A DNA stretch of 64,000 nucleotides from the IMG/VR virus record IMGVR_UViG_3300021400_001756, positions 3,744-67,743 of that record. One strand, written 5' to 3'. The position numbers and the translations under genes were made by a program. This stretch comes from a virus. Taxonomy: Duplodnaviria; Heunggongvirae; Uroviricota; Caudoviricetes. The notes under the pieces were generated by a model. The model was given only the letters and a program-made list of their open reading frames with translations, searched no databases and was not told the DNA's origin. This document shows, piece after piece, positions 9,791 through 63,966 of this stretch; position 1 is the first letter of the stretch, and each line of letters begins with the position of its first letter.

Positions 9791-10034
9791 CTACTTTCTC
9801 AACTTGCAAACTAACTAACAAGTTCTGTTCTTCACTTTGTGAACTAGTGTTAAAAATTAAGGGCTCACTATCTCCACCTATTTGAACTTTAATCCATGTA
9901 GTATATACAGACGTATTAGCAACCATATTACTAACACTATTTAAAACAGTATTAAAACGAGTATTTAATTTCTCTCTATCCATTGTAGCTACAACGTTAG
10001 AAAAATTTTTACTATACGTACGTCTAGTTACCAC
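9747..10034 (-). CDS. hypothetical tail protein
   Basis: A 95-aa ORF overlapping its neighbours by a few codons, suggesting an operon with translational coupling. Confidence 0.4.
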   Translation of the reverse strand: MVTRRTYSKNFSNVVATMDREKLNTRFNTVLNSVSNMVANTSVYTTWIKVQIGGDSEPLIFNTSSQSEEQNLLVSLQVEKVGARYNKYFYFTIHL

Positions 10035-10458: not shown

Positions 10459-11304
10459 CTACCTTACATCCATTACTTGACCACCCATAGCATTGTCTGT
10501 TCTATAATTAGTTCTTGAACGCATATTATCTCTTTGTAATACATCTGCTCCAGCAGTAGCAATACTAGGAAAATTAGTATTATATGTATTTTGTGTGCTA
10601 GATGAACTATAGTTCTCTATTAAATCTCTAGCTGATACAATGAAATCTGGGTAACAATCCATACTAATATCTACACTATTCCAACCATAAAATGTATTTA
10701 TGATTGGTTTTTTCCATGTAGTAGAGTAGCTTGTTACATAACCCTTTAATATCATTTGTCCAAATATAAAATATGTAGTAGGTGGTATAAGTCCACTACT
10801 TGTATATTGAGGATAACATGCCATTTGTAACATTTTATTCATACTAACATACCAAGTTCTAGTATCGAATGGACCATCTGGAGATTGCTTTTGTTTACCC
10901 GCACTTTGATATGCTGGATGTCCTCCAACACTTAGCATTACATTATTAGTTAACGAATAACTACCTGTTAAAAAGTCCCTATGAAGGTCTAAAGAAAAGT
11001 TTACAGATTTTAAACTAGTATGTGCGTAAGCTGCAATACTTGATGACCTACCTAATGGGTCTTGTTTTTCCCAAGATGGTGATATAGATTCTGTTACTTG
11101 GTCTGGATATGCAGGTATCTCTATTAAATACTCATAATCTCCTCCAACACCAAATCTATTAGGTTTACCATACTTTAGTAACATATAACACTCAAATTGT
11201 TTAAATCCAGGTATACCATTTGTTCCCCAAGCAGGTCCCCAAGCTTCATAATATTCATATCTAGTTTGGGGTGATTGCTCTATAAAATCATCGTATTCTG
11301 GCAT
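10459..11304 (-). CDS. hypothetical tail/baseplate protein
   Basis: A 281-aa ORF in the tail module. Confidence 0.5.
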   Translation of the reverse strand: MPEYDDFIEQSPQTRYEYYEAWGPAWGTNGIPGFKQFECYMLLKYGKPNRFGVGGDYEYLIEIPAYPDQVTESISPSWEKQDPLGRSSSIAAYAHTSLKSVNFSLDLHRDFLTGSYSLTNNVMLSVGGHPAYQSAGKQKQSPDGPFDTRTWYVSMNKMLQMACYPQYTSSGLIPPTTYFIFGQMILKGYVTSYSTTWKKPIINTFYGWNSVDISMDCYPDFIVSARDLIENYSSSSTQNTYNTNFPSIATAGADVLQRDNMRSRTNYRTDNAMGGQVMDVR

Positions 11305-32983: not shown

Positions 32984-33059
<76 letters not shown>

Positions 33060-33069
33060 GTCATTTAAA

Positions 33070-33155
33070 TGGTGGGCAGTTCTAGATTCGAACTAGAGAA
33101 CTCAAATGAGACCAGATTTACAGTCTGGCGGTTTTAACCACTCACCCAACTGCCC
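33070..33155 (-). tRNA. tRNA-Tyr (anticodon GTA), class II long variable arm
   Basis: Acceptor gggcagt/actgccc, anticodon loop ctgtaaa, a long variable arm and an encoded CCA. Confidence 0.65.
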
Positions 33156-33164
33156 AAAAACAAA

Positions 33165-33240
<76 letters not shown>

Positions 33241-33954
33241 ATATAAACTGTGTTAACTTTTTGACGTCCAAAAGTTAATATACATACCCACAGTTAAGTA
33301 TTGGGTTATAGAGGACTAACCCTCAATCCTGTAACATTTTAAAACCAGGTTCACTGGAAGTTGTACACACTTAGAATCACTTACTATCGGAAAGTAACTC
33401 TCAGAAACCGTTATTCATCTTGAATAATAGTCAACTTACAATTATATTCTATGATTTTTCGTTTGTAGTAACGAAGTGTATCTTTAGCACATAGTTACCA
33501 TAGACTACACCAAATCTATGCCCTCCTCGGTCAGGCGCCGTCAATATACTTTAAGTGTTTCATATTGATGAAGTACGGTTATTTACGTGGTTCCCACGAG
33601 AGCTTTATATTCTTTATAAAGTTGAACGGCTTCGATGCTCTGCTCCTAACAATCTTATCTATAATATAATTATAAAATTACATGTTGTACTACATATAAA
33701 TACTACATTTCTTTCTAAACATATATTATAGATTGGAGTAATAGTTTTTGAAATGAACTATTAAAGAAACATTTCTTATTTCAATAAGAGGTTATTCTGT
33801 CTCTCCAGAATGTCACGTTGCTACTTAATACACTGCTTACTCACCACAACGTTTATACCGAGCACTCTTGCCGTGTGTACTTGACTCTTGGACTTTATCC
33901 TACTTTACCAAGAATAGACTATACGGAGTGTTACTGTATAGGTAGGGCCTAAAG

Positions 33955-34029
33955 TGGTGACGCTACTGTGAGTTGAACACAGCACTTTGGAATGAAAATC
34001 CAATGGCTTAACCGACTGCCCCTAGCGCC
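33955..34029 (-). tRNA. tRNA-Glu (anticodon TTC)
   Basis: Acceptor ggcgcta/tagcgtc and anticodon loop ttttcat. Position 8 is G, the D-stem is weak, and the CCA is encoded. Confidence 0.55.
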
Positions 34030-34047
34030 ATATATTAAATTAAAATA

Positions 34048-34123
34048 TGGTCCGGGTAGCAGGATTCGAACCTGCGACCCCATGGTCCCAAACCACGTGC
34101 GCTACCAACTGCGCTACACCCGG
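34048..34123 (-). tRNA. tRNA-Pro (anticodon TGG)
   Basis: cgggtgtagcgcagttggtagcgc ... anticodon loop tttggga, with an encoded CCA. Confidence 0.7.
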
Positions 34124-34453
34124 ATATAAGAGATATATGTGTCCTCCCTGATACATTTAATTAGCCTTCGGCCAAGTCAATTAAAAACATATCCAGCATA
34201 CATCTCTCTTAGTAAGGAACTGTTTTACTATAAACTATATGTATTTTAATCCTCGCAAAACAAAAATACACAAATAATAAAACAACATGCACATATTAGT
34301 GGAGGTATTTTCTTGTACGTGAAAATACTATAAATATCTAAAGAGTTGAACGAACCTCTCCAAACTGTTAGCCACTCCTCTAACCAAAATAACAAATAAA
34401 ACTCTTATTAGTTAAGAAAATGAACAACTATGGATAAAAACTTAACTAATAAG

Positions 34454-34529
34454 TGGGTGCAGGAATAGGATTCGAACCTATGACCTTCAGGTTATGGGCC
34501 TGACGAGATAACCACTTCTCTACCCTGCA
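34454..34529 (-). tRNA. tRNA with CAT anticodon (Met, or Ile2 if lysidinylated)
   Basis: Anticodon loop cccataa and T-loop ttcgaat, with an encoded CCA. The anticodon stem lacks the initiator-type three G:C pairs. Confidence 0.65.
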
Positions 34530-34777
34530 GTATATTTTTTATATATTTTACAGTATTATAACCTTATACTTAATACTGTATTACTATAATAACATCTTAA
34601 CCTTATTATAAAATTAGAGATATTATTAAACCAATTTAATAATAAGTACAAAAATACAAAATTTCTATCATAAAAACATTTTTAATTTTTTATAAATGTT
34701 ATATTATAATAACTAGTTTTTAACTAAATAATATAATTAAAATGAAGCAATTAAACTTATATTATTAAGTTAGGTAT

Positions 34778-34851
34778 GGTTGGACGAGTTAGATTCGAAC
34801 TAACGCATGCATGAGTCAAAGTCATGTGCCTTACCACTTGGCTACCGTCCA
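34778..34851 (-). tRNA. tRNA-Gln (anticodon TTG)
   Basis: tggacggtagccaagtggtaaggc ... anticodon loop ctttgac, with an encoded CCA. Confidence 0.7.
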
Positions 34852-34990
34852 ATGTATAACTTCCATTTTTATTTTTACGAAGTGTTGAAAGTATAGCTAT
34901 CACTTTTACTATAAATTGCTTTGACCTCTATATTGTGATAAGCAATAAAACCAATTAGAGTAGTAAAGATGTTATAGTCATCTCTGCTTA

Positions 34991-35057
34991 TCTTGTGTAG
35001 GAATTGAACCCACATAACTGTCGTCACAGTTGTTCTACCATTAAACTAACAAGATAT
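34991..35057 (-). tRNA. tRNA-like element / probable tRNA pseudogene with a truncated anticodon arm
   Basis: It has a perfect 7-bp acceptor stem (atcttgt/acaagat), a canonical D-arm (tagtttaatggtagaac) and T-arm (gtgggttcaattcctac). The anticodon region is only a 6-bp stem with a GACG tetraloop, the total is about 67 nt, and there is no CCA. Confidence 0.35.
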
Positions 35058-35136
35058 AAATCTTATAAAATTGTGTAAGGTAGGTTAGGGTTCCTACCTT
35101 ACGGACGTTAATAATTTTGATAGCACTAACACTATC

Positions 35137-35228
35137 TGGCGTGGTAAGAAGGATTCGAACCTTCGGAAACTTTATAAGCTTCGCAACCTTAGCAGGGTTG
35201 TGGTTTAAGCCAACTCACCCATTACCAC
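35137..35228 (-). tRNA. tRNA-Ser (anticodon GCT), class II
   Basis: Acceptor gtggtaa/ttaccac, anticodon loop ctgctaa, a long variable arm and an encoded CCA. Confidence 0.7.
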
Positions 35229-42422: not shown

Positions 42423-42483
42423 AAACTATTTATTATAAAATAAGTATAACATATATTTTAAAAAATGTAAATAACAAAATAAT

Positions 42484-42517
42484 AAAAAAAATAAAGTGTA
42501 TTCTAAAAATACACTTT
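42484..42517 (-). terminator. rho-independent terminator after cargo gene 7
   Basis: A hairpin aaagtgtat-tctaaaa-atacacttt is followed on the minus strand by a T8 run. Confidence 0.6.
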
Positions 42518-42633
42518 AAAATCTTATTTGTATAATAAAAACAGTTCATTTAACTTATTTTCCATATCCACATCTATTTAAAAATAATACAATTATTTAG
42601 TTTTAGTGTACTTAATTATTATACCTTTTTAAT

Positions 42634-43329
42634 CTATACATATCTTTTATTGTGTTCTAGGTCATATTTAAACAGATTTATAATTTTATCTATGTTATTA
42701 CACCAACCATAATATGGATATTTGATTTGTGGTTTACCACTTCTTATACCCTTAAAATGAAGTGTTACACCTGTATTATCAGAGTCGAAAAGTGTTGGAT
42801 AAGGAGTACCCGTATTTATTCTAAAATCTACACCAGTTTCATCTAATAACCTTTGATGAACATTTGAAATATACGATGCTACAATATCCGTTTCTGAATT
42901 TAAAGGTTCTGTACAAATAAAACTAAGCGTATCATGGTCGTCATTGTTATATATATATCCAATCTGATATGTTAAATTTTTATTGTCCTTGTTAACTCCC
43001 CACTCAGCTATATAATTGTAATAAAATTGATGGTTTGGACAATCTGACCTAGTTTTAATATAGTTCATTTGTTTTAAAATATTATCTACTTTCACACCTT
43101 CAATATATAAGTCACTTATATGTGCAGTATAATAATATGATTGTGTATTATTTTTAATATCTGTATCTACTTTAGATGTAAACTTTAGATTAGGTTTTCC
43201 AGCTAATTCTTTGAAAGTTTGTGCTTCTCTTTTTGCTAACTCCCTACCGTCAATATCTTCTTTACCTTCTACAAGTTTTCCTTGTAAAGCTAACATAGTG
43301 TTTTCTACCAATCTATCCTTTTGATTCAT
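42634..43329 (-). CDS. leader-tagged variable protein 7 (MNQKDRLVENTMLALQGKLVEGKE...)
   Basis: It carries the conserved 21-aa N-terminal leader and a unique 210-aa C-terminal domain. Confidence 0.6.
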   Translation of the reverse strand: MNQKDRLVENTMLALQGKLVEGKEDIDGRELAKREAQTFKELAGKPNLKFTSKVDTDIKNNTQSYYYTAHISDLYIEGVKVDNILKQMNYIKTRSDCPNHQFYYNYIAEWGVNKDNKNLTYQIGYIYNNDDHDTLSFICTEPLNSETDIVASYISNVHQRLLDETGVDFRINTGTPYPTLFDSDNTGVTLHFKGIRSGKPQIKYPYYGWCNNIDKIINLFKYDLEHNKRYV

Positions 43330-43418
43330 ATTTTATCTCCTTATAAATCTAGTATCTAATATTATTTTACTTATTTTAGTATATAAGGAAAGGAAGTATT
43401 TTTCAATACTCCCGTTAT

Positions 43419-43455
43419 ATAATAAAAAATAAAGTGTACCTAAATTGTACACTTT
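43419..43455 (-). terminator. rho-independent terminator after cargo gene 6
   Basis: A hairpin aaagtgtac-ctaaatt-gtacacttt is followed on the minus strand by a T-run. Its stem is related to that of the 42484 terminator. Confidence 0.6.
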
Positions 43456-43468
43456 ATAATATAAAATA

Positions 43469-44272
43469 TTATCCATTATTTTCCCAATAAGTTGTTAGTT
43501 TATTAGCAATAGCATCTAAATCTTGACTAACTTCACGGTATAATTTTAGTTCTTCCTTATCCACACCTGCTTCAAAGCTATCTTCTAAACTAAATAGTTC
43601 AAAGTATGTAACTAAATCATTTAATGTATCTAAAGCATCTGTGTTAGACATTGAACCAAACTCTGTTTCATCTGTAAAGTTGAAAGCTATACCCTCAGTT
43701 TTTAATTGTTTTGATTCTGCAGCACATAAAGATTCTTTAAATAAATAATTTTTACCAGTTATTCTCCAAACACAGTTTAAAAGGTCTTCTATGTTAGCCT
43801 TATTAGCTATTTTTTCTTCATAATCTAAGGGGTCTTCTATCATATTGCAATTATCATCTACATTTTCTTCAGATATCCAATTAGTATAACTTAATAAATA
43901 ATTAGCTAACACATTTTTATATTCTTCTTTAGATAAAATATCTTTTATATCAACTAAAGTTTTAGGAAATAATCTAGATTCATTAAGTTGGATTTCTTCC
44001 CAATTATCAGCACCATTATTTCCAAATTTAGACTCTCTTTCTATAAAATCGAAAACATCTTCATAACTAGAAAACTTTCTAGCTTTTTCTATATCTTTTA
44101 CCCAGTAATAATTATTATTTGATTTCTCAGATAAATATCTATTTGTTTTATTATTTCTAATAACCCAAATTTCTGACTTAGATTCTTCTATTCTTCTAGT
44201 ATCTTGAGCTTCAGTTAATTTATTTTGTAAAGCTAGCATTGTGTTTTCTGTTAGTCTGTCTTTTTCATTCAT
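43469..44272 (-). CDS. leader-tagged variable protein 6 (MNEKDRLTENTMLALQNKLTEAQD...)
   Basis: Conserved leader with a unique C-terminal domain. Confidence 0.6.
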   Translation of the reverse strand: MNEKDRLTENTMLALQNKLTEAQDTRRIEESKSEIWVIRNNKTNRYLSEKSNNNYYWVKDIEKARKFSSYEDVFDFIERESKFGNNGADNWEEIQLNESRLFPKTLVDIKDILSKEEYKNVLANYLLSYTNWISEENVDDNCNMIEDPLDYEEKIANKANIEDLLNCVWRITGKNYLFKESLCAAESKQLKTEGIAFNFTDETEFGSMSNTDALDTLNDLVTYFELFSLEDSFEAGVDKEELKLYREVSQDLDAIANKLTTYWENNG

Positions 44273-44325
44273 AATTTTCCTCCTATATTTTAAAATTTAT
44301 TAAATTAACACGTACTTTTTCACAT
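44250..44325 (-). repeat. about 75-bp repeat copy A (5' end plus UTR of cargo gene 6)
   Basis: It is identical to 46498..46573. It contains the RBS and ttttaaaatat, and overlaps the stop of gene 5. Confidence 0.7.
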
Positions 44326-45183
44326 TTCATAGAATGATTTTTTAGTTAAACCACTATTATATTTATAATTTTTTCCAACTACTTTGCAAATTATAACCTC
44401 TCCATCACCATAATCTTGATTTTGAAAATAGTTAATTATAGTTTTTATCTTCTCTTCATCAGTTTCTTCAGCATCATAATAATCTTCTGGATTTAATCCT
44501 AATATATCAGTCATTACATACTCAAACGCTTCTAAATCAGTATCAAAATATTCTACTGTGTTACAATAATCGTCGTCTACATCTTCTCTAGTTTCTTCTC
44601 TTCTTTCACGAGTTGCAGTGTTTAAATAATAAACTATATTATATTTTAAATTTCCTTTAGATGGTTTATTACTTAGTTCATTTAGAGCATTTTCTACAAA
44701 TGTTGTAAGATTTTTATTTACTATATTTACAGTTTTATCAATTAAATTTTTACATTGTTTAATTAACTCTAACCCATTTTCATTTGTTACAGGTTTACGA
44801 TATACAGAATCATCCTTTAACTCTGGATATTTATAATAAAAATCATTAGCTATATCGTTTGTTAAATCTCCATATTTCTCATAAACTCTATATAATTGTT
44901 TATCTTCGTCAGATATTAGTTTATCTACTTCATCCTCGATATATGAAAAAGATGAATAATATATATAATATGTATCATCATATAAACGTTGTATCACATC
45001 TATTTGATTGTTTAAATATACACACTCAATTATTCCAGTGCCTTTAACACAACTAGGTTTCAAATTACATTGTTTAAACCAATTCATAATTGTAGTTTCA
45101 CTTAATTTAGATTCATTATCTTCAGTTAATTTACCTTGTAAAGCTAGCATTGTGTTTTCTGTTAATTTATCCTTTTGATTCAT
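44320..45183 (-). CDS. leader-tagged variable protein 5 (MNQKDKLTENTMLALQGKLTEDNE...)
   Basis: Conserved leader with a unique C-terminal domain. Confidence 0.6.
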   Translation of the reverse strand: MNQKDKLTENTMLALQGKLTEDNESKLSETTIMNWFKQCNLKPSCVKGTGIIECVYLNNQIDVIQRLYDDTYYIYYSSFSYIEDEVDKLISDEDKQLYRVYEKYGDLTNDIANDFYYKYPELKDDSVYRKPVTNENGLELIKQCKNLIDKTVNIVNKNLTTFVENALNELSNKPSKGNLKYNIVYYLNTATRERREETREDVDDDYCNTVEYFDTDLEAFEYVMTDILGLNPEDYYDAEETDEEKIKTIINYFQNQDYGDGEVIICKVVGKNYKYNSGLTKKSFYEM

Positions 45184-45194
45184 ATCTGCCTCCT

Positions 45195-45944
45195 TTAACT
45201 TATTATTTTAAATATATCTTCATCCCACATTAAATATGATTTATCTCCAAAAGGTCTACCATCTCTATATGTAGAATGTGTATCAATAAATATAAAATTG
45301 TTTTCATCCAATACTGTTTTAACAGGTGTATGTCCTATAATTTGATATGGTACTATAGGTTTTTCTATTTTATTATAGTATATATGTTCTGTATAATCTG
45401 CCCATACAAAGGAACTAAATGGACAATTTCCACCTCTACTACTTGATACTACAGATAACATATATAAATTATTAAGTTTATCATTATTTATATTTTCTAA
45501 TTGTTTTTGCCAATTATTTTCTTCATCTAACATATTTTTAATATAATCGTTAGTTATTCCTGCATGTGTACATACATAATCTTTATCATTACATTTTACA
45601 ACTGTATAGAAATTTAATTTATCAATATTCTCTTTTAGTTTATTAGTCATTACATCATCTAAATTATAATCATGTCCTGAGCACTCATACCCTAAATAAC
45701 TTAACTCATGATTTCCTAAGAGAAATGTATATTTATTGGGTTCATTTTCTTTTAAATTAAAAACTGTATTTAATGTCTCTAAAGAATTATGATTATCTGT
45801 TAACCAATCATCTACATAATCACCCATAAATATTATTCTATTAAATTTATATTTTTCATCTAATCGTTTTACATCTTCAAATATGTAAGAATGATTGTGC
45901 ACATCTCCTACAAATAGATATTTCATTATTATATACTCCTCCAT
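45195..45944 (-). CDS. calcineurin-like metallophosphatase (lambda-PPase-like)
   Basis: GDVHN, GDYVDD and GNHE motifs. It has no leader and is embedded in the cargo cassette. Confidence 0.65.
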   Translation of the reverse strand: MEEYIIMKYLFVGDVHNHSYIFEDVKRLDEKYKFNRIIFMGDYVDDWLTDNHNSLETLNTVFNLKENEPNKYTFLLGNHELSYLGYECSGHDYNLDDVMTNKLKENIDKLNFYTVVKCNDKDYVCTHAGITNDYIKNMLDEENNWQKQLENINNDKLNNLYMLSVVSSSRGGNCPFSSFVWADYTEHIYYNKIEKPIVPYQIIGHTPVKTVLDENNFIFIDTHSTYRDGRPFGDKSYLMWDEDIFKIIS

Positions 45945-46040
45945 TTAAGTTAATAAAATATAACTTAACTTTTATAATAATTATCTTTATATCAAATATT
46001 ATATCCTTTTATGTTATAATTAAATCCGTTATTATATAGA

Positions 46041-46520
46041 TTATTTAAAATTTTTTAATACCTCTCTGTAATCTTCACCATCTTCGGAATGATAGTTTGT
46101 TTGTGTTCTAACATATTCAGCATTATTTATACAACGTTTAAAATAGTCATCAACTATTTTCTTAGGAGTATAATTTATTATAAATGCTGTTGCATCGTCT
46201 TCATGATTTTCATTAAGAAAAGCAACTATATTATTTTGACCCATTGTTTCACTGTATTCTTTTAATTCAAAATCATTTAATATTTTTTTTCGACATTTAG
46301 TTGGAAGCTTATTAAAAAAGTACATAGCGACTCTTTTGTCTTTAATATATCTTGAATTTCCATATGGGTCAGCATATACTATTAAATACAGTATTTTATC
46401 CGCAATAACTTTACTTTCTTTTTCATTATATGTAATAGTTTCTTCACTTTTTGATTCCTTAGTTAGTTTACCTTGTAGAGCTAATACAGTGGCTTCTTGT
46501 AGTCTGTCTTTTTCATTCAT
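46041..46520 (-). CDS. leader-tagged variable protein 4 (MNEKDRLQEATVLALQGKLTKESK...)
   Basis: Conserved leader. Its 5' region is identical at the DNA level to that of gene 6. Confidence 0.6.
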   Translation of the reverse strand: MNEKDRLQEATVLALQGKLTKESKSEETITYNEKESKVIADKILYLIVYADPYGNSRYIKDKRVAMYFFNKLPTKCRKKILNDFELKEYSETMGQNNIVAFLNENHEDDATAFIINYTPKKIVDDYFKRCINNAEYVRTQTNYHSEDGEDYREVLKNFK

Positions 46521-46573
46521 AATTTTCCTCCTATATTTTAAAATTTATTAAATTAACACGTACTTTTTCACAT
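46498..46573 (-). repeat. about 75-bp repeat copy B (5' end plus UTR of cargo gene 4)
   Basis: It is identical to 44250..44325. Confidence 0.7.
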
Positions 46574-46628
46574 ATATTTATAACTTTCTTTTTCTGTTGG
46601 ATAGTCTGTTAATTCATTAGGTATTCTA

Positions 46629-47135
46629 TTAGTTTTCTAATTTATTTCGCATTTCACTCATTCGGTCTGCAGTAAATTTAGGGTTAGCATAAGATTTAAC
46701 TTTTGATAAAGATAATCTATGTTCAAACCCTGCTCTTATTTCATCCAGTTGTTCTTCATTAAATTTACCACTTTCTTCACATTGTTTTAAGAACTCTTCG
46801 TTCTTATTTTGATTACTGTACTGTCTCTTAACATAATCAAATAATAGTGCTGTAGCATTCCAAGCTGTACTTTCGTAACAATCGTAATTATCACAAATAT
46901 TATCTAGCCAATCTGGACCCCAAGCATTTAACTCATCTATAAAACAACCTAAATCATCATTACTTTTTTTATAAGCACGAAATAGGTCTGTCATATCATA
47001 TTCAAATTCTTCTTTAAGGTCCCTATATATGTCGTTAGCTCCTTCAGTTAATTTTGTTTTTAATCTTTTACCTTCTACAAGTTTACCTTGTAAAGCTAGC
47101 ATTGTAGCTTCTGTTAATTTGTCTTTTTCATTCAT
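46629..47135 (-). CDS. leader-tagged variable protein 3 (MNEKDKLTEATMLALQGKLVEGKR...)
   Basis: Conserved leader with a unique C-terminal domain. Confidence 0.6.
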   Translation of the reverse strand: MNEKDKLTEATMLALQGKLVEGKRLKTKLTEGANDIYRDLKEEFEYDMTDLFRAYKKSNDDLGCFIDELNAWGPDWLDNICDNYDCYESTAWNATALLFDYVKRQYSNQNKNEEFLKQCEESGKFNEEQLDEIRAGFEHRLSLSKVKSYANPKFTADRMSEMRNKLEN

Positions 47136-47149
47136 TCTTTAATCCTCCT

Positions 47150-47722
47150 TTAATATAAAAAAGCTAATGGGTCAAATGAATTTGCTGGATATAAACGTTC
47201 TCCATAAACACCATTTAAAACTTTTTGTAATTCTTGTTTTAATTCCTTTATAGAAGTATAACCAGAAACATCTTCATATTCATATACATTTCCAGTACTA
47301 GTATCAGCAATTATATATGTTTTATAATTTTCTACAGAATATGGGTCTGTATATCTACCTAAAAGATAGGGAGGTAAATTTGTACTCATTTTATAATAAT
47401 CTTTTTGATTATTTACCTCGTGCCAACCAGAATTATTTCCATAGAAGAATTTATTATTTTCATATTTACACCACTTATTTTTAGTAAAATATTCGTTCTT
47501 TAAAAATGTAATAAATAATTCATTTACACTATTATCTTTATATTGTCCTTTAACATTTTTAGCATCTAGTTTTTCTGCTTCTTTTTGTGCAGTTTTTAAA
47601 TCTGTAAATTCTTTATCCATTACAGTATCATCTTTAAGTACAATCTTATATATGTATGGATTATTTTCTCCTTCTGTTAAGACTTTTATAGTAGCCTCCA
47701 GCAGTTTGTCTTTTTGATTCAT
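47150..47722 (-). CDS. leader-tagged variable protein 2, degenerate leader (MNQKDKLLEATIKVLTEGEN...)
   Basis: The leader has a 3-residue deletion relative to the consensus. Confidence 0.55.
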   Translation of the reverse strand: MNQKDKLLEATIKVLTEGENNPYIYKIVLKDDTVMDKEFTDLKTAQKEAEKLDAKNVKGQYKDNSVNELFITFLKNEYFTKNKWCKYENNKFFYGNNSGWHEVNNQKDYYKMSTNLPPYLLGRYTDPYSVENYKTYIIADTSTGNVYEYEDVSGYTSIKELKQELQKVLNGVYGERLYPANSFDPLAFLY

Positions 47723-47723
47723 T

Positions 47724-48332
47724 TTATCTCCTTTCTAAATATTTTGGATTTGACGATGGTATAATTTTGTAATCAATAATTTCGCCATCTGAAGTAAAAG
47801 TACGTTTATATGTTTCTCCATCATGTTTAGCTAAATCCAAGGTTTTATAAATATATGCAGTTTTAATATCATCATTCAAAGTTTTATCTGGTTGTATATA
47901 TTTAAGCTTGTCATTATTAGCTATCTTTATACCAACTATGTAGTAATCAATTAAACCCAATTCATATTTAATATCAATTATGTTCTTATCTACATAATTT
48001 TTAATATATTTAATATAATCCTCACTATTATCTTTATTAAGATAATCTACTCTAATTATCTCTTGATTTTTTTCGTTTTTATCTTTTACAGTTAATTGTA
48101 TATAACTATTTTTGTTAGTGTTAACCCTATTTCTAAAATTTAAGGTACAATCTAAATCATTATATTTAAAACGTATATAATGTCCTTGTTCATGTTGACT
48201 AAGGATTGTATAATTATTAAACGTATTTTTAAAATTGTTAATGGCTTTAAACTTATCTATATAAATACCCTCACATAATTTACCTTGTAAACCAAGCATA
48301 GTAGCTTCTGTTAATTTGTCTTTAATATTCAT
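47724..48332 (-). CDS. leader-tagged variable protein 1 (MNIKDKLTEATMLGLQGKLCEG...)
   Basis: The start is probably the second ATG, about 30 nt inside track ORF 47724..48362. A gggag RBS lies 10 nt upstream of it, and the promoter-like motif abuts the first ATG. Confidence 0.55.
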   Translation of the reverse strand: MNIKDKLTEATMLGLQGKLCEGIYIDKFKAINNFKNTFNNYTILSQHEQGHYIRFKYNDLDCTLNFRNRVNTNKNSYIQLTVKDKNEKNQEIIRVDYLNKDNSEDYIKYIKNYVDKNIIDIKYELGLIDYYIVGIKIANNDKLKYIQPDKTLNDDIKTAYIYKTLDLAKHDGETYKRTFTSDGEIIDYKIIPSSNPKYLERR

Positions 48333-48363
48333 ATAATTATATTCTCCCTTCAATATAAACATC

Positions 48364-48381
48364 TAATAATATTTTACATCA
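48364..48381 (-). promoter_or_regulatory. conserved promoter-like motif (GATGTAAAATATTATTAG)
   Basis: About 32 nt upstream of the probable start of cargo gene 1. Confidence 0.4.
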
Positions 48382-48575
48382 AATCTTGAGCCCATACATA
48401 GGTAACACTTCCACAACCATACACCTTCACATAACCCTCTTGAATAATTAAATATTCATTATCAGTCTCATATTAGTACAATTATAACATATATGTATAT
48501 TAACATCAATTATAGAGATAAAATAAAAGGACATACTTAATTGTATGTCCTCTAAATTTATTGTTTAAGTGAATA

Positions 48576-49979
48576 TTAAACAGTAACACGTCCTCTAATG
48601 TAAAGGTTAGCGTTAACCATCTTGTTACCATATATACTTACAAATCCTTGTTGTGTTGTAAAGTCTCCTAGTGTAGTTGGAGCTGTATATGTGATTGGCA
48701 TATAGTTACCTACAACATATCCGCTCATCCAGAAGTCATTTCCAATTCCACCTAAGTAGAAATCGTTTGGTCCCATAGCTGGTGATTGATATACTTTAAG
48801 TGTTCCTAAAGTACCTGCTAAGAATGAACCACCGTTTTGTGGTACTTCATTACCTACAAAGTTTACACATTTTTGTAAGTAAGCTACAACGTTAGCTCCA
48901 GCTACAACATGGTTAGCAATTAAGTTACCATTTGTGTTTTGATAAATCTCAGCTGCTGCTAAGTTTAATGCTAATTGTAGTGATTGAGCATGTTCTACAT
49001 CACTTACACCTGGTCTTGGAGTTGAGCTCCATACTATAGCATTTCCACCAGCTGCATTTGCGAATATATCACCAATAACTACTCTCTCTTGTTCCTTATT
49101 CATTTCATTAGCAACTTGTTGTTCAAATACCATAGGCATGTTAACACCATATTCTTTGTTAACTCTATAAGCTGCTGTTAGTGCATATACTGCTCTTAAC
49201 TTATGCTCTTGAGCTTCAATAATAACTGGGTTAATTCCCATTGTGATGTCTCCAACTTGTTGTTTATTGTGTCCATCTAATTCTGGGTATAAATAGTTAG
49301 GAACTACTTCATTACTATATGTATAAGAAATAGTTGTATCAGCTGCTACTGCACTTGTGAATGTAACTTCACCTGTTGCAAAGTTAATTGTTGTTCCATC
49401 TGATAATGTTGAAACTCCAGCTGCTGGTGTTACTTGTTCATCAGTAACAATTGTTCCTGCTTTATTTATAGAAACTGATTTAGGTACAATTGGAGTAAAT
49501 GGTGCTAAATATTTTGTTATACCAGCTGTAATAGGTTGGTCTTTAATAATTCTTCCATCATAGTTAGCATCTGTTTTTCCTGCTCCTGTTGAATCGATGA
49601 TTAAATCACCTGCTTTAACTGCACCTTTGTCTGTTCCATATCTTAATTCAAGAACTGGTAATAGTTGAGCTGCTGTGCTCATTGCTTGCATAGATACGAT
49701 TTCAGGTAAGATTGTGTTTTGAACTGCAATACTTACAATATTGAATGCATCTCTTTTGAAGTTTCCTACATTTGATGTTTGTGTATATCCTTCAAATAAA
49801 TTTCCTTTTTGAATGTTTTCAAATAATTGTGCTGCATAATATTTATCATATGCTGACATTGGTTTTGCACCACTAACTTGTCTAGCATTTTCTAATAGTC
49901 CAATTCTCTTAGAGTATTTTTGAACTAATGGATTTTCTCTAACTTCTTTGTTTAGAGATTCTCTAGTAATTGTTTTCAT
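48576..49979 (-). CDS. major capsid protein (T4 gp23-like superfamily)
   Basis: It is 467 aa and lies immediately downstream of the protease/scaffold gene. The N-terminal 30-aa segment ends in RIGLLE-NARQ, a possible propeptide cleavage site. Confidence 0.65.
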   Translation of the reverse strand: MKTITRESLNKEVRENPLVQKYSKRIGLLENARQVSGAKPMSAYDKYYAAQLFENIQKGNLFEGYTQTSNVGNFKRDAFNIVSIAVQNTILPEIVSMQAMSTAAQLLPVLELRYGTDKGAVKAGDLIIDSTGAGKTDANYDGRIIKDQPITAGITKYLAPFTPIVPKSVSINKAGTIVTDEQVTPAAGVSTLSDGTTINFATGEVTFTSAVAADTTISYTYSNEVVPNYLYPELDGHNKQQVGDITMGINPVIIEAQEHKLRAVYALTAAYRVNKEYGVNMPMVFEQQVANEMNKEQERVVIGDIFANAAGGNAIVWSSTPRPGVSDVEHAQSLQLALNLAAAEIYQNTNGNLIANHVVAGANVVAYLQKCVNFVGNEVPQNGGSFLAGTLGTLKVYQSPAMGPNDFYLGGIGNDFWMSGYVVGNYMPITYTAPTTLGDFTTQQGFVSIYGNKMVNANLYIRGRVTV

Positions 49980-50287: not shown

Positions 50288-51784
50288 TTATCTGTGTGTT
50301 AATACGTTGTATAATGCTCTCTCTTCTTCTGAAAGGTTTTCACTGTTTTGTTCATTATCTGTAAATTTACCCAAAGCAGAAACCGAATTAAATGAAACAT
50401 TTGATAATCTCTCTTGTGCTTCCAATGCTTTAGCATTTTCTTCTTTTAATCTTTTAATTTCCATTTCTAATTTAGTTACTTTTGCCTCTTCTAGTTTTTT
50501 ACCTTCAGTTAATTTAATAGCATTTTGTTCTTTTTCAGATAATAATTTGTTAACTTGTTCTTGTAACATTTTGTTATCTGTTAATATTTTACTTTTATCT
50601 TTTACACTTTCTGTTAATTTTAGATTTTCTTTAATTAAATTATTAACTTGTTGTTGTAATTTAGTATTATTTTCTTCTAAGTTTGTTAATTTTTCTAAAT
50701 ATTCTTTTTCAGCTTTTTCTAGTTTTAACTCTGTTACTTTCTTTACGTTTCTTAATAACTCTTTATTTTCAACTAATTGTTTTTGTATTTCCTCTGTTTT
50801 ATCCTCAACGTCTTTCTTTGTCTTAGATAGAGCTGTATTACTCTCTTCTAATTTAGTTGAAATATCTTTGTTTATATCTTTTTGTTCTTTTAATTTTAAT
50901 TTAAGCATATTTTTTGAATTTACATAGTAGTTATTAGTTTCTAGTAATTTTTTGTTTTCCATACTAAGTGATTCATTTGCTTTTAATGATTCACTTAATT
51001 GGTTATTTAATTCTGCAACTTTATTATTAAGTAATCTTATTGCAATTGGTCTATTAACTTCAATAAATTTATTACTTGCTGATACTTTTGATTCTGTAAA
51101 TGACTGTAATTTTGATTCAATTTTATTTTGAACTTCTTGCTTATTATCTACAGCTATACTATCTACTACAGTCTTAATTTGATTTAATTGATTTTCTGTT
51201 TCACAATCATCAATTTCTCTATTTAAACTCTCCAATAATTTGGATACATGTTTACTTTCTGTTAAAGAAACTCTTGCTTTTGTATTAGCTGGAGTTACAA
51301 CAACATCAAATGTTATAAAGTCATAAGTTTCTGGGTCGATAATGTTTTTACCTTCAGAATAAATTTCTTCACCCATACCACGAGAGCTGATACCTAACTT
51401 TGCACCACTATCAGCTAATGCTTTTACTATTCTACCTGTAGGTGTATCTAATATCTCAGCTTCGCCGTATATAACACCTTCCTCAGGTCTTTTTTCCAAT
51501 TTTGTAATTGTTATAGCAGCGTTTTTTGCTAATGTTTCACATCTATCACCTTCTGGGTGGTCTAATTCACCAAAAAGTGTTTTTGTTTCCAATGCTTCCA
51601 TTACATCCTCTGAACCGAATACTCTATTATCCCATAACTCTTCAGTATATAATCTATCTGAATTTCGTGTTCCGTGTTTATAATCGGCAAACACACCTTT
51701 TAATTTACCTAATATACCTGATTTATTTGTGTTTTCAAATTCAGTTGATGAAGATTGAGCTTCTATTATAGTAGCTTTTCCCAT
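50288..51784 (-). CDS. prohead protease fused to coiled-coil scaffolding domain
   Basis: The N-terminal roughly 200 aa (LFGELDHPEGDR ... AKLGISSRGMG) match the HK97/T4-type prohead serine protease pattern with a His ... Ser dyad. The C-terminal roughly 280 aa are a K/E-rich coiled coil. Confidence 0.6.
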   Translation of the reverse strand: MGKATIIEAQSSSTEFENTNKSGILGKLKGVFADYKHGTRNSDRLYTEELWDNRVFGSEDVMEALETKTLFGELDHPEGDRCETLAKNAAITITKLEKRPEEGVIYGEAEILDTPTGRIVKALADSGAKLGISSRGMGEEIYSEGKNIIDPETYDFITFDVVVTPANTKARVSLTESKHVSKLLESLNREIDDCETENQLNQIKTVVDSIAVDNKQEVQNKIESKLQSFTESKVSASNKFIEVNRPIAIRLLNNKVAELNNQLSESLKANESLSMENKKLLETNNYYVNSKNMLKLKLKEQKDINKDISTKLEESNTALSKTKKDVEDKTEEIQKQLVENKELLRNVKKVTELKLEKAEKEYLEKLTNLEENNTKLQQQVNNLIKENLKLTESVKDKSKILTDNKMLQEQVNKLLSEKEQNAIKLTEGKKLEEAKVTKLEMEIKRLKEENAKALEAQERLSNVSFNSVSALGKFTDNEQNSENLSEEERALYNVLTHR

Positions 51785-52009: not shown

Positions 52010-54463
52010 TTATTCTTCATTGTCATCTTGTAACTTTAATAAAAAGTTCTCTCTATAGTCCATTTCGTTTTCTATAGCTTCATCATCATTAGCTACATAT
52101 ATAGCATTTCTTGCTATCTCCTTTAATAATTCTATTGGCATTGTAGTATAATTATTAGCTACAAAATCATAAGGTGCTTTTTTAAATTTTTCTAAGTATT
52201 CTTTATATTCTTCTTGTTCCTCATCAGTCATTCTATCTACTAACTCGTTGTATATTTGTTCATCTTTATTTGCTACGTATATGCCGTTAAGTGCTAGTTC
52301 TTTTAAATAATATCTATCATCTGTATTATATGTTCTATCATATAAGCCTTCTTTTAATTTTTTAGATTCATCTAATTCATCTTCTTCATCTTCTGGGTCA
52401 TACCAACTGCCATCACAAGATATTTGTTGAGAACCATATTTATCCGAATATAAAGTCCAACCTATATTTTTTGTTAAAACTCCTTCATCTATAAATCTTC
52501 TAGGATTTAATCCAGCATCTTCAAAAGCTTCTTCTATTTCTTGAAATATTCCACTATCATAAGTGTCTCCTTCTTGAAGTTTTTTACTTTCTAATTTAGA
52601 ACTAACTTTATCAGAACCGTTTTTTGTACTTTCTCTAATCCATATTGTAGAGCCTGTATTGTTTAGTCCTAATTCAGCCTCAGGATATTTTGATTTTATA
52701 TATGCTTCAACATCATCATAAAACTTACGTGTAAAATTAACAATACCTGAATCTATATAATCTGTAGGAGCTAATTTTAAATCAATTACATTACCATATG
52801 TTCTCATATCACCGTCAATTCTAACTGTAACTGCATCTCCAACAAGTGATTTAATATAATCTACATCACTATCGTCCCAATTATAAACATTAATTCCATC
52901 ACCAACTTGTTTTTTATAAACTTCAGTTTTATATGGTTTTAAATAGAACCATACACCTGCACCATTTTCGGTTATTTCACCTTGTAATTGATTATATTTA
53001 TCTTCTACAGTTTTCTTTATATCTTTTGCTGTATTCTCAGATTTACCATTTCTACTTACGATTATAATCTTATTTCCTCTACCATCCTTAGTATATGATT
53101 GAACTGACCAAGCATTACCTTTATGTACATCTAAATCATATATAAACTTACTTATATTTGGAAGTCTACGGTTTACTTGATTTTTATTTTTATCTTCATT
53201 TATTTTAGTTAATTCCACTATAGTGTCTTCCTCTCCGCTAAAATCAGATTCTATACAACTTTTAAGTTCATTTACAATATCTTCGTACTCTTCTGAATCT
53301 TCATCCATCTCATATACGTCTGGGTATTCTTGCTCTATAGCTTCAATTTCTGCATTAACTATATTTTTATCCATATCATTAACAAATTTATCTGCCCACA
53401 CATTTATCTCACTAACTGTAGTCATTGAATCTAATTCCTCTAATAAGTCTCCAATTGTAATAGACTCACTAAGTTTTTTAGACTCATCTAAATCATCTTC
53501 ATCATAATCATCATCTGTGTCTTCTTCCCAGTCATCTTCTTCCTTATCGTCCCAATGTTCATCAAACTCAAAAGGACCATCACACTCATAAATGTCTCCC
53601 TGCTTATTTGAATTATTAGCTTGTTCAAGGAATTCTTCTGCTAAAAACTCATCAGCTAACTTCTTTAATAAATCTTCGTATTCAGAGTCTGTAGAAACAC
53701 CTTCAATAGACATTAAAATTTCTTGTGTTCCATCTACATATTCGTATAACCAATTTGCATAACTAGATAAGTCATTAGCCCATCCGTTCATTCCAGACAT
53801 TACATTATCGTATACATCTCCATCATTATACCATTTATATACTAACTTAGTTATAGCAGTTACTATTTGTGTTGCAAAAGTATCTCCTTGTCCCTCTACA
53901 GGTAAATACTTATCTTCTATTGATTTGAACTTATCATAGTAACTCCAATTAACGGATTCATCCATCTTCTTTTTAGTATTGGTTTTTAAATTTTCTTGTT
54001 TATCTTTATTTTTAACCCTAAATTCTCTGTAAATCAAGTTATCTTCTTTTCCTTGGGATTTAAGTTCATCACCCATTTTTCTCATTTCCTCATAGCCTTT
54101 AGCTTCTTCGCTGGCACTAAATACTTTAAGAACCTTATTATTAGATGTATCTATTATTCTAAATTCTTTAGATGTTTTAGACTCACCTAGTTTTTCTGGT
54201 TTAACATCTTCATCTGGAATAAAATTCTCTGATTGTATAAACAACTCTTTAGCTGTATCTTCCCATAAATCTTTATCTTCTAAACTTCCATATTGTTCAA
54301 TACATTTATCATCTATTAAACCTTTATATTGTATTTTATATGATTCAAAATCAGCTTTATTATTTAATTTAGTTTGTTTGTTATTATTAGTACTAATTTC
54401 TAGTACAGTATGATTTTGTAAATCTTTAACAATACTCTCTTTCTTAATATCACGTTTTGACAT
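52010..54463 (-). CDS. large acidic head-module protein (possible portal; uncertain)
   Basis: It is 817 aa and lies upstream of the protease-scaffold-capsid genes, where a portal is usually encoded. It has a poly-acidic tract (DDWEEDTDDDYDEDDLDE) and a C-terminal internal repeat (YLKELALNGIYVANKDE / LLKEIARNAIYVANDDE). Confidence 0.35.
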   Translation of the reverse strand: MSKRDIKKESIVKDLQNHTVLEISTNNNKQTKLNNKADFESYKIQYKGLIDDKCIEQYGSLEDKDLWEDTAKELFIQSENFIPDEDVKPEKLGESKTSKEFRIIDTSNNKVLKVFSASEEAKGYEEMRKMGDELKSQGKEDNLIYREFRVKNKDKQENLKTNTKKKMDESVNWSYYDKFKSIEDKYLPVEGQGDTFATQIVTAITKLVYKWYNDGDVYDNVMSGMNGWANDLSSYANWLYEYVDGTQEILMSIEGVSTDSEYEDLLKKLADEFLAEEFLEQANNSNKQGDIYECDGPFEFDEHWDDKEEDDWEEDTDDDYDEDDLDESKKLSESITIGDLLEELDSMTTVSEINVWADKFVNDMDKNIVNAEIEAIEQEYPDVYEMDEDSEEYEDIVNELKSCIESDFSGEEDTIVELTKINEDKNKNQVNRRLPNISKFIYDLDVHKGNAWSVQSYTKDGRGNKIIIVSRNGKSENTAKDIKKTVEDKYNQLQGEITENGAGVWFYLKPYKTEVYKKQVGDGINVYNWDDSDVDYIKSLVGDAVTVRIDGDMRTYGNVIDLKLAPTDYIDSGIVNFTRKFYDDVEAYIKSKYPEAELGLNNTGSTIWIRESTKNGSDKVSSKLESKKLQEGDTYDSGIFQEIEEAFEDAGLNPRRFIDEGVLTKNIGWTLYSDKYGSQQISCDGSWYDPEDEEDELDESKKLKEGLYDRTYNTDDRYYLKELALNGIYVANKDEQIYNELVDRMTDEEQEEYKEYLEKFKKAPYDFVANNYTTMPIELLKEIARNAIYVANDDEAIENEMDYRENFLLKLQDDNEE

Positions 54464-57220: not shown

Positions 57221-57685
57221 CTATATTGTTTTAGCATCTAATTCGTTTAATTTTAAATCTAATTGTTCTACTTTACTTGTATATTCTTCTAATAATGTAT
57301 TAAGTCTATCTATTTTTTCTCTATATAATTTATTATAGTCGTATTCCTTAAATTTTATACCTATACTCTTTAATTCCTCTAAATACTCATTTGGATTACA
57401 TTCACCTGTTTTATATGTATCTATAGTAGCTAATAAATCTGCCATAAAGTCCGGTATATCCTCTGCCTTTATTTGTACTTCCTCACTGTAATAAAGTGTA
57501 TAAGCTAAAGCTATTAACATATTAGTTATAGAATCTTCTATTTCTTCTTTATAAGCATTATTGTATACTATTCTTAACTCAGATGAAATTTGTGTTTCGT
57601 AATCTTTAGCCCACTCAACTAATTTTGCTTTATCCTTCTCTCTAGCTGCCTTTTCCAATCTTCTTATTTCACTACGATTAACCAT
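57221..57685 (-). CDS. hypothetical protein
   Basis: 154-aa ORF. Confidence 0.5.
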   Translation of the reverse strand: MVNRSEIRRLEKAAREKDKAKLVEWAKDYETQISSELRIVYNNAYKEEIEDSITNMLIALAYTLYYSEEVQIKAEDIPDFMADLLATIDTYKTGECNPNEYLEELKSIGIKFKEYDYNKLYREKIDRLNTLLEEYTSKVEQLDLKLNELDAKTI

Positions 57686-63038: not shown

Positions 63039-63966
63039 CTGCCTTCATTTTAATTATTGTTTCAGCTACATCCTCAGCTAATTCTTCATTATTAGTTTTA
63101 TCTAATACAACTAGTTTAGCTTCATCACTATCTAAGTCTTTTAAGTCGTTAACCCAACTCATCAAATCATTAAATTCATAATTAGACTCTGTTACTTTAG
63201 ATTCATTAACAATTTCCATTATAGTTCTTATATCTTGTTCTTTATTTTCTTGTAATGATTCTTGTTTTATATTTTTAATTTTATCTACTCTTTCTTTTAA
63301 ATCTTTTAACCAATAACTAACCTTTTTGAAATTTTCTTCAGAATCGTATCCTAAATTTCTTCTTCTTGAAATTTGGTCTGTTTTAGATTTTCTTTCCCAA
63401 GACCATGTATCTATTTCATTCTTTATGTGTTGTAAATCTTCTTTCATTACTTTTATATCCCACTCAGAAGTATTTAATAAATCTTCAGGCTCCAAACTTT
63501 TTATAGACTGTTTAGCTTCCTCAAATTCTCTTTTTGCTTTTTCTAAATATTTATCAGTATAAGCTTTATAATCATCATCAGATACATCTTTAACATTTTT
63601 TAAAGCATTATCGTATTCGGCTTTAACTCTTTTACATATTTCAACTACATCTGCTAAATCAACCTTATCTTCGGCTACATAATTATATTTATCGCAATCT
63701 TTGTATGAAGGTAATTTACTATATTCATTATAAGTTAATCCATCTAAATAATCTACCCTTATAGCTAAAAATACATTTCCGTCATCCTTTAGATATGAAA
63801 TTGGTATACCGTTGCATCGATACATTCTAAATCTATTGCCATCGTCCGAAAAATCTAATTCTGGAGCTCTTTCAATTCCATACTTTTTAAAGTTAAGTCT
63901 ATCCTCAGTTAATTTAGTTTCTTCCAAGCCTAGTCTAGTTTTCTTTTCGTACCCTCTATTTAACAT
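63031..63966 (-). CDS. hypothetical protein
   Basis: 311 aa. The N-terminus LGLEETKLTEDR weakly resembles the cargo leader. Confidence 0.5.
   Translation of the reverse strand: MLNRGYEKKTRLGLEETKLTEDRLNFKKYGIERAPELDFSDDGNRFRMYRCNGIPISYLKDDGNVFLAIRVDYLDGLTYNEYSKLPSYKDCDKYNYVAEDKVDLADVVEICKRVKAEYDNALKNVKDVSDDDYKAYTDKYLEKAKREFEEAKQSIKSLEPEDLLNTSEWDIKVMKEDLQHIKNEIDTWSWERKSKTDQISRRRNLGYDSEENFKKVSYWLKDLKERVDKIKNIKQESLQENKEQDIRTIMEIVNESKVTESNYEFNDLMSWVNDLKDLDSDEAKLVVLDKTNNEELAEDVAETIIKMKAGE

Follow-up and report, generated by a model that had tools for sequence, protein, structure and literature searches.

In a 64,000-nucleotide (nt) stretch of a tailed-phage genome (Caudoviricetes; IMG/VR record IMGVR_UViG_3300021400_001756, positions 3,744 to 67,743), referred to here as the window, seven genes next to the major capsid gene encode otherwise unrelated proteins that begin with one common leader. 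We consider it likely, from the pattern of conservation and the genes next door, that this 21-residue N-terminus is a capsid-targeting address tag that is removed by the prohead protease. The principle is known from the T-even phages; what is new is the tag itself, together with its cargo and the lineage of phages that carries them.

Organization of the leader-bearing cassette

The window is AT-rich, with approximately 24-35% G+C per 2-kilobase (kb) segment and mostly 25-31%, and its coding capacity lies almost wholly on the minus strand. From 48332 to 42634, directly downstream of the capsid gene, eight close-packed genes occupy this strand, and seven of the eight encode the leader, whose 21-residue consensus is MN.KD(K/R)L.E(A/N)T(M/V)LALQGKL.E. 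The start codons of these genes (48332, 47722, 47135, 46520, 45183, 44272, and 43329) and a six-frame profile search confirm what a preceding sequence-only reading of this DNA had described, namely seven consecutive minus-strand genes with a shared leader. The cassette comprises the following genes:

47724-48332, minus strand: cargo gene 1, 202 amino acids (aa) from the ATG at 48332; leader MNIKDKLTEATMLGLQGKLCE at 48270-48332; isoelectric point (pI) of the mature part 8.8
47150-47722, minus strand: cargo gene 2 (g47722), 190 aa; shorter leader variant MNQKDKLLEATIKVLTE at 47672-47722
46629-47135, minus strand: cargo gene 3, 168 aa; leader at 47073-47135; a second KLTEG 10 residues further on
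46041-46520, minus strand: cargo gene 4 (g46520), 159 aa; leader at 46458-46520; second site LTK, not LxE
45195-45944, minus strand: metallophosphatase without leader (PF00149, E 2.2e-14; PHROG_246)
44320-45183, minus strand: cargo gene 5 (g45183), 287 aa; leader at 45121-45183
43469-44272, minus strand: cargo gene 6 (g44272), 267 aa; leader at 44210-44272; mature pI 4.4
42634-43329, minus strand: cargo gene 7 (g43329), 231 aa; leader at 43267-43329

The leaders of genes 3-7 are, in order, MNEKDKLTEATMLALQGKLVE, MNEKDRLQEATVLALQGKLTK, MNQKDKLTENTMLALQGKLTE, MNEKDRLTENTMLALQNKLTE, and MNQKDRLVENTMLALQGKLVE. For cargo gene 1, the start is most likely the internal ATG at 48332 and not the first ATG of the open reading frame (ORF) at 48362, because only 3 nt separate the latter from a promoter-like motif and the former has a GGGAG ribosome-binding site in front of it.

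The leaderless member of the cluster had been called a metallophosphatase, and the PF00149 match bears this out. Its true start is probably Met7 (45926). Orthologues in related phage contigs, which begin MKVLFVGD or MKYLFVGD, lie in the corresponding place with respect to the capsid gene (49% identity in L004, 59% in L015/L029), and on these sequence comparisons the metallophosphatase is a conserved anchor gene of the locus.

A leader profile was built from six of the leaders, with that of g47722 left out, and used for a six-frame search of the whole window. The six source leaders score E 1e-15 to 1e-16, values that are circular given that the profile was made from them, and the g47722 leader was matched independently (E 3.8e-5). 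Beyond the leaders of eight genes, the eighth of which lies outside the cassette, the six-frame search of the window returned nothing better than E=2.9. The mature parts that follow the leaders measure 138-266 aa and are mostly acidic (pI 4.4-6.1, with one at pI 8.8). They lack BLASTP similarity to each other, the best pair in the seven-sequence database reaching E 0.008 over 26 aa, in line with the mutually unrelated C-terminal parts reported previously. A megablast search of the region against 50,697 phage records gave no match.

Conservation of the leader at the peptide level

Leu7, Leu13, and Leu19 are invariant and each is encoded by three different codons, which places the conservation at the level of the protein and not only of the DNA. 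Synonymous differences occur at 73 codon pairs among six leaders, and with the exception of the pair formed by genes 4 and 6, the leader copies are 64-80% identical in DNA. These figures bear on an alternative in which conservation acts at the nucleic-acid level, a promoter, 5′ untranslated region (UTR), and start cassette having been spread by recombination with the peptide incidental. Genes 4 and 6 fit such a history, since their 5′ UTR and leader are 89% identical over 113 nt (46461-46573 versus 44213-44325), which suggests recent recombination, duplication, or gene conversion of a promoter-leader module; duplication of this module could drive cargo swapping. The other copies, however, have diverged in DNA to the extent given above while the peptide is kept, the invariant leucines are written with three codons each, synonymous pairs differ as counted above, and the peptide persists in distant phages with different DNA, so we regard this explanation as very improbable.

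Within the peptide, L7, E9, L19, and E21 are invariant, with one exception at E21, and the most variable positions are 3, 8, 10, 20, and 22. Positions 8 and 20 are the middle residues of L7-x-E9 and L19-x-E21, and fixed L and E around a free x is the pattern expected if L-x-E itself is under selection. The first motif is present in all seven cassette leaders, and its equivalent in the eighth tagged protein, an acidic protein described below, is L6-L-E8. The second is present in six of the seven (L19-x-E21, or L15-T-E17 in g47722), and the acidic protein has L18-E-E20 there. The claim that the leader ends in (K)L-x-E accordingly stands for six of the cassette leaders and fails for g46520, which ends in KLTK. 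The shorter leader of the g47722 type also occurs in relatives, at L034 9677 and L004 8681. A single-sequence AlphaFold model of cargo 7, unusable as a structure (pLDDT, the predicted local distance difference test score, 37), predicts the leader region to be helical with low confidence.

Neighboring head genes and recurrence of the terminal motif

The genes upstream of the cassette supply both a likely substrate and a likely enzyme for cleavage at such a motif:

48576-49979, minus strand: major capsid protein, gp23 type (PF07068, E 1.9e-22); candidate propeptide cuts LLE30, LFE54, and LFE63↓G (the arrow marks a predicted cut)
50288-51784, minus strand: prohead protease, T4 gp21 type (PF03420, Peptidase_S77, E 2.8e-12; PHROG_207, E 3.9e-36)

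In T4, gp21 cuts after Glu in L/I-X-E (PMC9026906), and the gp23 propeptide has 65 residues and ends at Glu65 (PMC5694885). The T4 Glu65 position is an invariant alignment column that falls on LFE63↓G of the window capsid protein, where the maturation cut is most likely predicted by this alignment. The sequence-only reading had placed the end of the capsid propeptide at LLE30, which now becomes a further candidate and probably not the maturation cut. In the protease alignment, the catalytic-site residues H85, S140, and D168 of T4 gp21 are invariant, and IIE8 near the N-terminus pairs with LIE9 of T4; a PDB sequence search with the protease gave no match. Behind its protease domain (residues 1 to approximately 180), the protein carries a K/E/L-rich C-terminal extension of approximately 320 aa, which is presumably a scaffold.

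The terminal motif of the leaders recurs in this neighborhood. Outside the cassette, KL[TVC]E occurs six times in the whole window versus 1.15 expected (4 of 2000 residue shuffles reach six), and five times in the head-region proteins at 50-64 kb versus 0.48 expected (0 of 2000 shuffles); the test was made on independent proteins, and is post hoc in that the KL[TV]E motif had first been defined from the leaders. Two KLTE sites lie in the C-terminal extension of the protease. Similarly, two other head-region proteins (63031-63966 and 57221-57685, both minus strand) have KLTE or KLVE at residues 18-24; their N-termini otherwise differ (MLNRGYEKKTRLGLEETKLTE↓D and MVNRSEIRRLEKAAREKDKAKLVE↓W), and these proteins may be N-terminally processed too.

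As a separate observation, an 866-aa protein encoded at 60438-63038 (minus strand) contains an internal KLTEG and, at its C-terminus, weakly resembles ArdA (E 0.0036, which does not reach the Pfam cut-off).

Tagged genes outside the cassette

The earlier count of seven tagged genes holds for the cassette; an eighth lies elsewhere in the window, and the tag is clade-wide rather than cassette-specific. The genes concerned, including a tentative ninth member, are:

24776-26149, minus strand: eighth tagged gene, acidic protein, 457 aa; leader MSKISLLEATKLALQGKLEE at 26090-26149; profile match E 7.5e-5 over residues 6-20
52010-54463, minus strand: 817-aa head-region protein, tentative ninth member; N-terminus MSKRDIKKESIVKDLQNHTVLE resembles the shorter leader variant

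The acidic tagged protein (pI 4.1, 31% D+E) is encoded 22 kb from the cassette and has a mosaic middle region; its gene is flanked by a T4 gp13-like neck gene on one side and by the tail sheath gene on the other. All of its metagenomic homologues (P0004-P0008), which extend to approximately 38-41% identity, carry the tag. Insertions in this family shift the residues after GKL, and [LIV]-x-E is always kept, as illustrated by the sites KLNLTE↓G, KLELKE↓N, ELIVE↓D, and KLVLEE. This protein could be a component of the core or scaffold that has gone unrecognized, or else a DNA mimic that is injected.

The 817-aa gene lies just upstream of the protease and is preceded by an exact copy of the promoter-like motif. 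Residues 166-303 of its product share 70% identity with a 303-aa protein of L004 that bears the leader, and the shared domain begins right after KMDE in the 817-aa protein and right after KITE of the leader in L004, which hints at polyprotein-like processing. The 817-aa and acidic proteins were also considered as paralogues, and this was dropped, as no significant similarity was found between them within the window; a 40-residue stretch of the 817-aa protein does match acidic-family genes of relatives.

The location of the acidic gene brings in a second alternative, in which the tag is a retained docking peptide that anchors accessory proteins to the neck, the collar, or the capsid exterior, in the manner of the N-terminal adaptors of fibers and tailspikes. 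The sole clade-conserved tagged protein is indeed encoded between the neck and sheath genes, close to the position of the T4 neck whisker gene, and modular N-termini with variable C-termini are typical of adaptors. A structural adaptor of 21 residues would nevertheless be very short, the cargo proteins are small and non-repetitive without fiber-like or receptor-binding family matches, and most non-acidic tagged genes of relatives adjoin protease and capsid genes. Docking also leaves unexplained the invariant L and E with a free x, the retention of [LIV]-x-E after insertions and deletions, and the recurrence of KL(T/V)E in the protease/scaffold protein. We therefore rate it as unlikely, although it is the alternative that we would take most seriously.

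Distribution of the tag among related phages

To survey the tag, a degenerate DNA pattern for the core LxE.T.LALQGKL was run against IMG/VR and a collection of 185,579 bacterial and archaeal genomes, one per species. It was found at 15 places in IMG/VR and at three among the species genomes, and all 18 matches lie at the N-terminus of an ORF. Every matched locus that overlaps recognizable genes carries homologues of the structural genes of the window, so that the leader was not met outside head-protein contexts, the situation which the sequence-only reading had named as contradicting it. The three species-genome matches are phage-like contigs, binned with two metagenome-assembled genomes (MAGs) of uncultured Clostridia and one of an uncultured Desulfovibrionaceae. 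One viral contig of 208 kb has three tagged genes. Altogether, 31 tagged proteins fall into 17 groups unrelated by BLAST; a search of related phages for the leader on different cargo had been suggested in the earlier reading.

In the relatives, tagged genes lie between the protease and capsid genes (L015/L029), just upstream of the protease (L016), or downstream of the capsid gene (L004 and L034). The interval from the capsid gene to the metallophosphatase holds four tagged genes in the window, homing-endonuclease-like genes and two tagged genes in L004, and one small untagged ORF only in L015. Compared in this way, the interval and the stretch just beyond it are a variable hotspot. Among more distant capsid relatives (47% identity, L006-L009), no leader cassette follows the capsid gene; in LIS04, neck genes follow directly.

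Two ORFs at this locus deserve mention in their own right. In L004 (ena:ERZ27271058:k141_364273), one of the two tagged genes is a 53-aa ORF at 10001-10162 that consists of a perfect leader fused to a capsid fragment (RAVYALTAAYKINKEY) that is identical to an internal segment of the capsid protein of the same phage, probably a recombination scar in the hotspot. In L015, the ORF after the metallophosphatase (4526-5020, minus strand) has the leader-like MRRDITEATKLALQNKLQE at residues 75-93 and not at its start, which means either that the real start is an internal Met or that two genes are fused.

Two other searches were less productive. When the strict start MN.KD(K/R)L was included in the DNA pattern, IMG/VR yielded one match, dismissed as chance (MNKKDKFGELTSK), and a 45-residue leader alignment recovered only three short fragments in a large protein search.

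Cargo domains

None of the seven cassette proteins matches a Pfam or PHROG family. PDB sequence searches with all seven gave nothing meaningful, the best hit (E 0.0025, g45183 to CSF-1) looking compositional, and the seven mature parts, submitted as one concatenated query, found no homologue in a word-indexed search of a 5.8-billion-protein database. The latter negative reflects limited sensitivity, because an exhaustive HMMER search with cargo 5 retrieved 59 homologues among 1.84 billion representatives; this full-depth search covered cargo 5, and for the other six cargos the word-indexed result is a weak negative.

The cargo 5 homologues share its widespread C-terminal domain of approximately 110 aa (window 44323-44688, minus strand), whose signature is YxITYYLNTAxxERRPxT...DLEAFEY...YFxxQDxGDG. 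The AlphaFold model of cargo 5 reaches pLDDT 92 and had no fold match in PDB or BFVD. The same tag precedes the homologues P0010, P0011, P0013, and P0015, and some others are untagged. Still other homologues carry short N-termini of at least three different types that end in L-x-E: MKFKLVE↓A, MNLYEKLNRLDDSLVE↓S, and MNIFESLNKIDDRKSLRE↓S, the latter two with the endings ...SLVE↓S and ...SLRE↓S. One cargo 5 homologue also contains an ArdA anti-restriction domain, and domains associated with polyvalent proteins lie beside the head genes of relatives (ART-PolyVal in L004, LPD11 in L034).

No cargo matched an anti-defense family (ArdA, Ocr-like proteins, ADP-ribosyltransferases, and others) in the Pfam, PHROG, and PDB sequence searches. 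The ADP-ribosyltransferase, nuclease-inhibitor, or DNA-mimic folds envisaged in the sequence-only reading were thus not recovered, either there or in the cargo 5 fold search. An early anti-defense role of the cargo, by analogy with T4 Ip1-3, is our leading guess.

These domains also speak to a third alternative, according to which the cassette is a fast-diverging paralogous family of non-virion, cytoplasmic proteins (active, for instance, in host takeover), with the N-terminus serving as an interaction helix. Tandem arrays of small ORFans are common among phage accessory genes, and both the empty word-indexed search and the low-confidence helix prediction fit this description. The same tag, however, precedes demonstrably unrelated domains (the cargo 5 domain, the acidic family, and the domain of the 817-aa protein), which indicates domain shuffling and not divergence. 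It is always at the extreme N-terminus, its terminal motif matches the specificity of the neighboring protease family, and the promoter-like motif of structural genes stands before the first and last genes of the cassette. We judge a cytoplasmic family improbable, marginally more so than docking.

Expression signals

A 13-nt promoter-like motif, GTAAAATATTATT, occurs in 11 copies with at most one mismatch in the window, versus 2.3 expected, and all 11 copies lie in intergenic DNA on the minus strand, with a start codon following after 20-75 nt. The signals in and around the cassette are:

2359, 6136, 13414, 16618, 27486, 43358, 48365, 51858, 54518, 56165, and 59705, minus strand: GTAAAATATTATT sites
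48365-48377, minus strand: promoter-like motif GTAAAATATTATT, exact match, before cargo gene 1
43358-43370, minus strand: promoter-like motif with one mismatch, before cargo gene 7
48526-48553, minus strand: terminator-like hairpin after the capsid gene
43392-43457, minus strand: two terminator-like hairpins after gene 6, closing the long cassette unit
42479-42522, minus strand: AT-rich hairpin downstream of gene 7; direct repeat family D5, 75% identity to the terminator at 43417-43460

Copies lie in front of the genes for the protease and the 817-aa head-region protein, of several tail genes, and of the first and last cassette genes, and the motif is probably the late or structural-gene promoter of the phage. 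Its being shared with structural genes would fit co-expression of the cassette with head assembly.

Several expression features had been proposed before. A GGAG-type ribosome-binding site does precede each cassette gene, as claimed. The promoter-like motif, said to accompany most genes, is present in full only at the first and last. The two terminators are there in part, with the hairpins after g44272 and a weaker AT-rich one after g43329 whose G+C content is too low for the threshold set in the terminator scan; another follows the capsid gene. Because the full motif is limited to the first and last cassette genes, the idea of independent expression is only partly right: the cassette looks like one long transcription unit covering genes 1-6 and the phosphatase, and one single-gene unit for gene 7.

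A parallel leader in a cultured phage

Streptococcus phage vB_SagM-GXN1 (PQ819873.1, L030-L033) is isolated and culturable, and encodes a capsid protein 28% identical to that of the window and a protease of the same type. Five of its unannotated ORFs begin MRL(V/I)(K/R)LxE and then diverge:

98803, 122094, 132585, 132841, and 134401: starts of the GXN1 leader ORFs

Three of the five lie just downstream of the capsid gene, and a looser version of the pattern found no further ORF in the 176 kb of GXN1. At eight residues, this leader is near the T4 tag in size.

Three cases, namely the 21-aa clade tag, MRLVRLTE of GXN1, and the other leaders on the cargo 5 domain, lead us to suggest tentatively that tags terminating in L-x-E are a general, lineage-specific "postcode" across phages with T4-type heads, and that, if so, detecting the tag could by itself list the packaged and injected proteome of uncultured phages. 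We hold this generalization to be plausible rather than probable. If true, the clade list already holds at least 17 unrelated families as candidate first-strike anti-defense effectors with new folds.

Comparison with known systems

An addressed multi-gene cargo cassette had been thought undescribed, and in this respect the internal proteins of the T-even phages take precedence (PMC12373910, PMC3012670, PMC9026906). T4 internal proteins carry N-terminal capsid-targeting sequences of 10-19 residues that bind the scaffolding core and are removed by gp21, and ten tag residues are enough for foreign proteins to be loaded; Asp at the T4 cut site prevents processing and leaves targeting intact (PMC9026906). 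At least 10 internal proteins are known from T-even phages, found via the leader, which is their sole common sequence (PMC12373910, PMC3012670); their genes occupy variable hotspots (PMC12373910, PMC3012670, PMC9026906), and Ip1, Ip2, and Ip3 act as inhibitors of three different GmrSD restriction enzymes, one each (PMC12373910, PMC3012670). In the T4 genome itself, the adjacent ipII and ipIII share MKTYQEFIAE and then diverge.

The resemblance to this system is extensive. As in T4 Ip1, Ip2, Ip3, and Alt, a short N-terminal leader is the sole common part of otherwise unrelated proteins; the leader ends in L/I-x-E in a phage that encodes a gp21-type protease and a gp23-type capsid; tagged genes cluster in variable hotspots; and the predicted fate would be packaging and co-injection with the DNA. 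What is shared with the IPII/IPIII leader is the format only, L/I-x-E↓A at residues 7-10. The present system differs from T4 in having two L-x-E motifs and a 13-residue core, LxEAT(M/I)LALQGKL, in its unusually large array (seven tandem genes plus at least one dispersed copy, against three Ip genes at two loci in T4), in its distant, uncultured lineage linked to Clostridia, and in a protease fused to a long scaffold-like extension.

Two further systems offer partial parallels. In the giant phages phiKZ, 201phi2-1, and SPN3US, head-internal proteins are cut by a gp21-related protease after x-x-E, the propeptides often have several cleavage sites, and SPN3US gp53 and gp54 are paralogues with identical N-termini that diverge elsewhere (PMC5694885, PMC9026906). 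Those propeptides mostly exceed 100 residues and have the motif S/A/G-x-E (PMC5694885), whereas the leader described here has 17-21 aa and an L-x-E motif, and its cargo proteins are not paralogues. Polyvalent or packaged anti-restriction proteins, such as DarA/DarB of P1 and ArdA-type DNA mimics, are likewise often acidic, modular, and delivered with DNA; the link to them is by neighborhood and composition only, as the cargo has no anti-defense family match. Loading by way of a short, cleaved leader is not known for the P1 Dar proteins.

Weighing the capsid-targeting interpretation

Overall, the T4-like interpretation proposed from sequence agrees with every indirect test run here, with corrections to the claim of novelty, the cut at LLE30, the gene number, and the notion of seven independent units. 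Core binding, cleavage, packaging, ejection, and cargo function are steps that we infer from the genes.

A number of observations weigh against this interpretation. T4 internal proteins are basic, while the cargo here is mostly acidic. The leader profile gives negative bit scores against T4 IPII and IPIII, that is, no tag similarity, and at approximately 21 residues the tag is about twice as long as the T4 minimal 10. The second L-x-E is missing from g46520 (LTK), and the most conserved tagged protein, the acidic one, adjoins neck and sheath genes and not head genes. The idea of the leader as an amphipathic helix was dropped, since its hydrophobic moment does not exceed that of shuffled sequences. 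Furthermore, the timing class of the promoter-like motif is read solely from the genes it precedes, the KL[TV]E enrichment is post hoc, and the capsid is approximately 30% identical or less to any sequenced isolate, and the relatives are uncultured.

Proposed mechanism and significance

Under the capsid-targeting interpretation, the tagged proteins would be made together with the head proteins, and the tag would attach them to the scaffolding core during procapsid assembly. We presume that the long C-terminal extension of the protease forms this core, to which the conserved acidic tagged protein may also contribute. After closure of the shell, the gp21-type serine protease would cut after the Glu of L-x-E, with predicted cuts after Glu9 (LxE↓A) and/or Glu21 (KLxE↓G/A/D). 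The mature proteins would stay in the head and, we expect, pass into the host together with the DNA. Since any ORF placed behind the tag would become cargo, we propose that this is how the capsid-metallophosphatase region has become a variable hotspot.

The concept itself is unchanged by these findings, which carry a T-even speciality over to phages that are distant but have heads of the T4 type. The T4 leader-bearing proteins, found by leader searching, proved to be injected inhibitors of restriction enzymes, each specific to one defense (PMC12373910), and a second, unrelated leader gives the same handle where host or virion is unavailable. The tag predicts which ORFans are virion cargo and thereby nominates candidate new anti-defense activities, and, like the T4 tag before it, it could serve to direct foreign proteins into such capsids. 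The idea can be tested directly in the culturable GXN1, with its related eight-residue leader.

Host association and other features of the window

The phage clade is probably associated with Clostridia. In the tail region, a gene at 11304-13367 (minus strand) encodes a 687-aa protein with four dockerin type I repeats (PF00404, E 1.2e-37), and relatives are alike in this respect. The dockerin-bearing tail-region protein and the Clostridia MAG bins together point to a cellulosome-producing Clostridia host, perhaps with cohesin-mediated adsorption. The window also contains eight to nine transfer RNA (tRNA) genes at 32984-35228 (minus strand), of which ARAGORN reports Thr, Tyr, Asn, Glu, Pro, Met, Gln, and Ser, and Rfam adds one more at 34989-35055.

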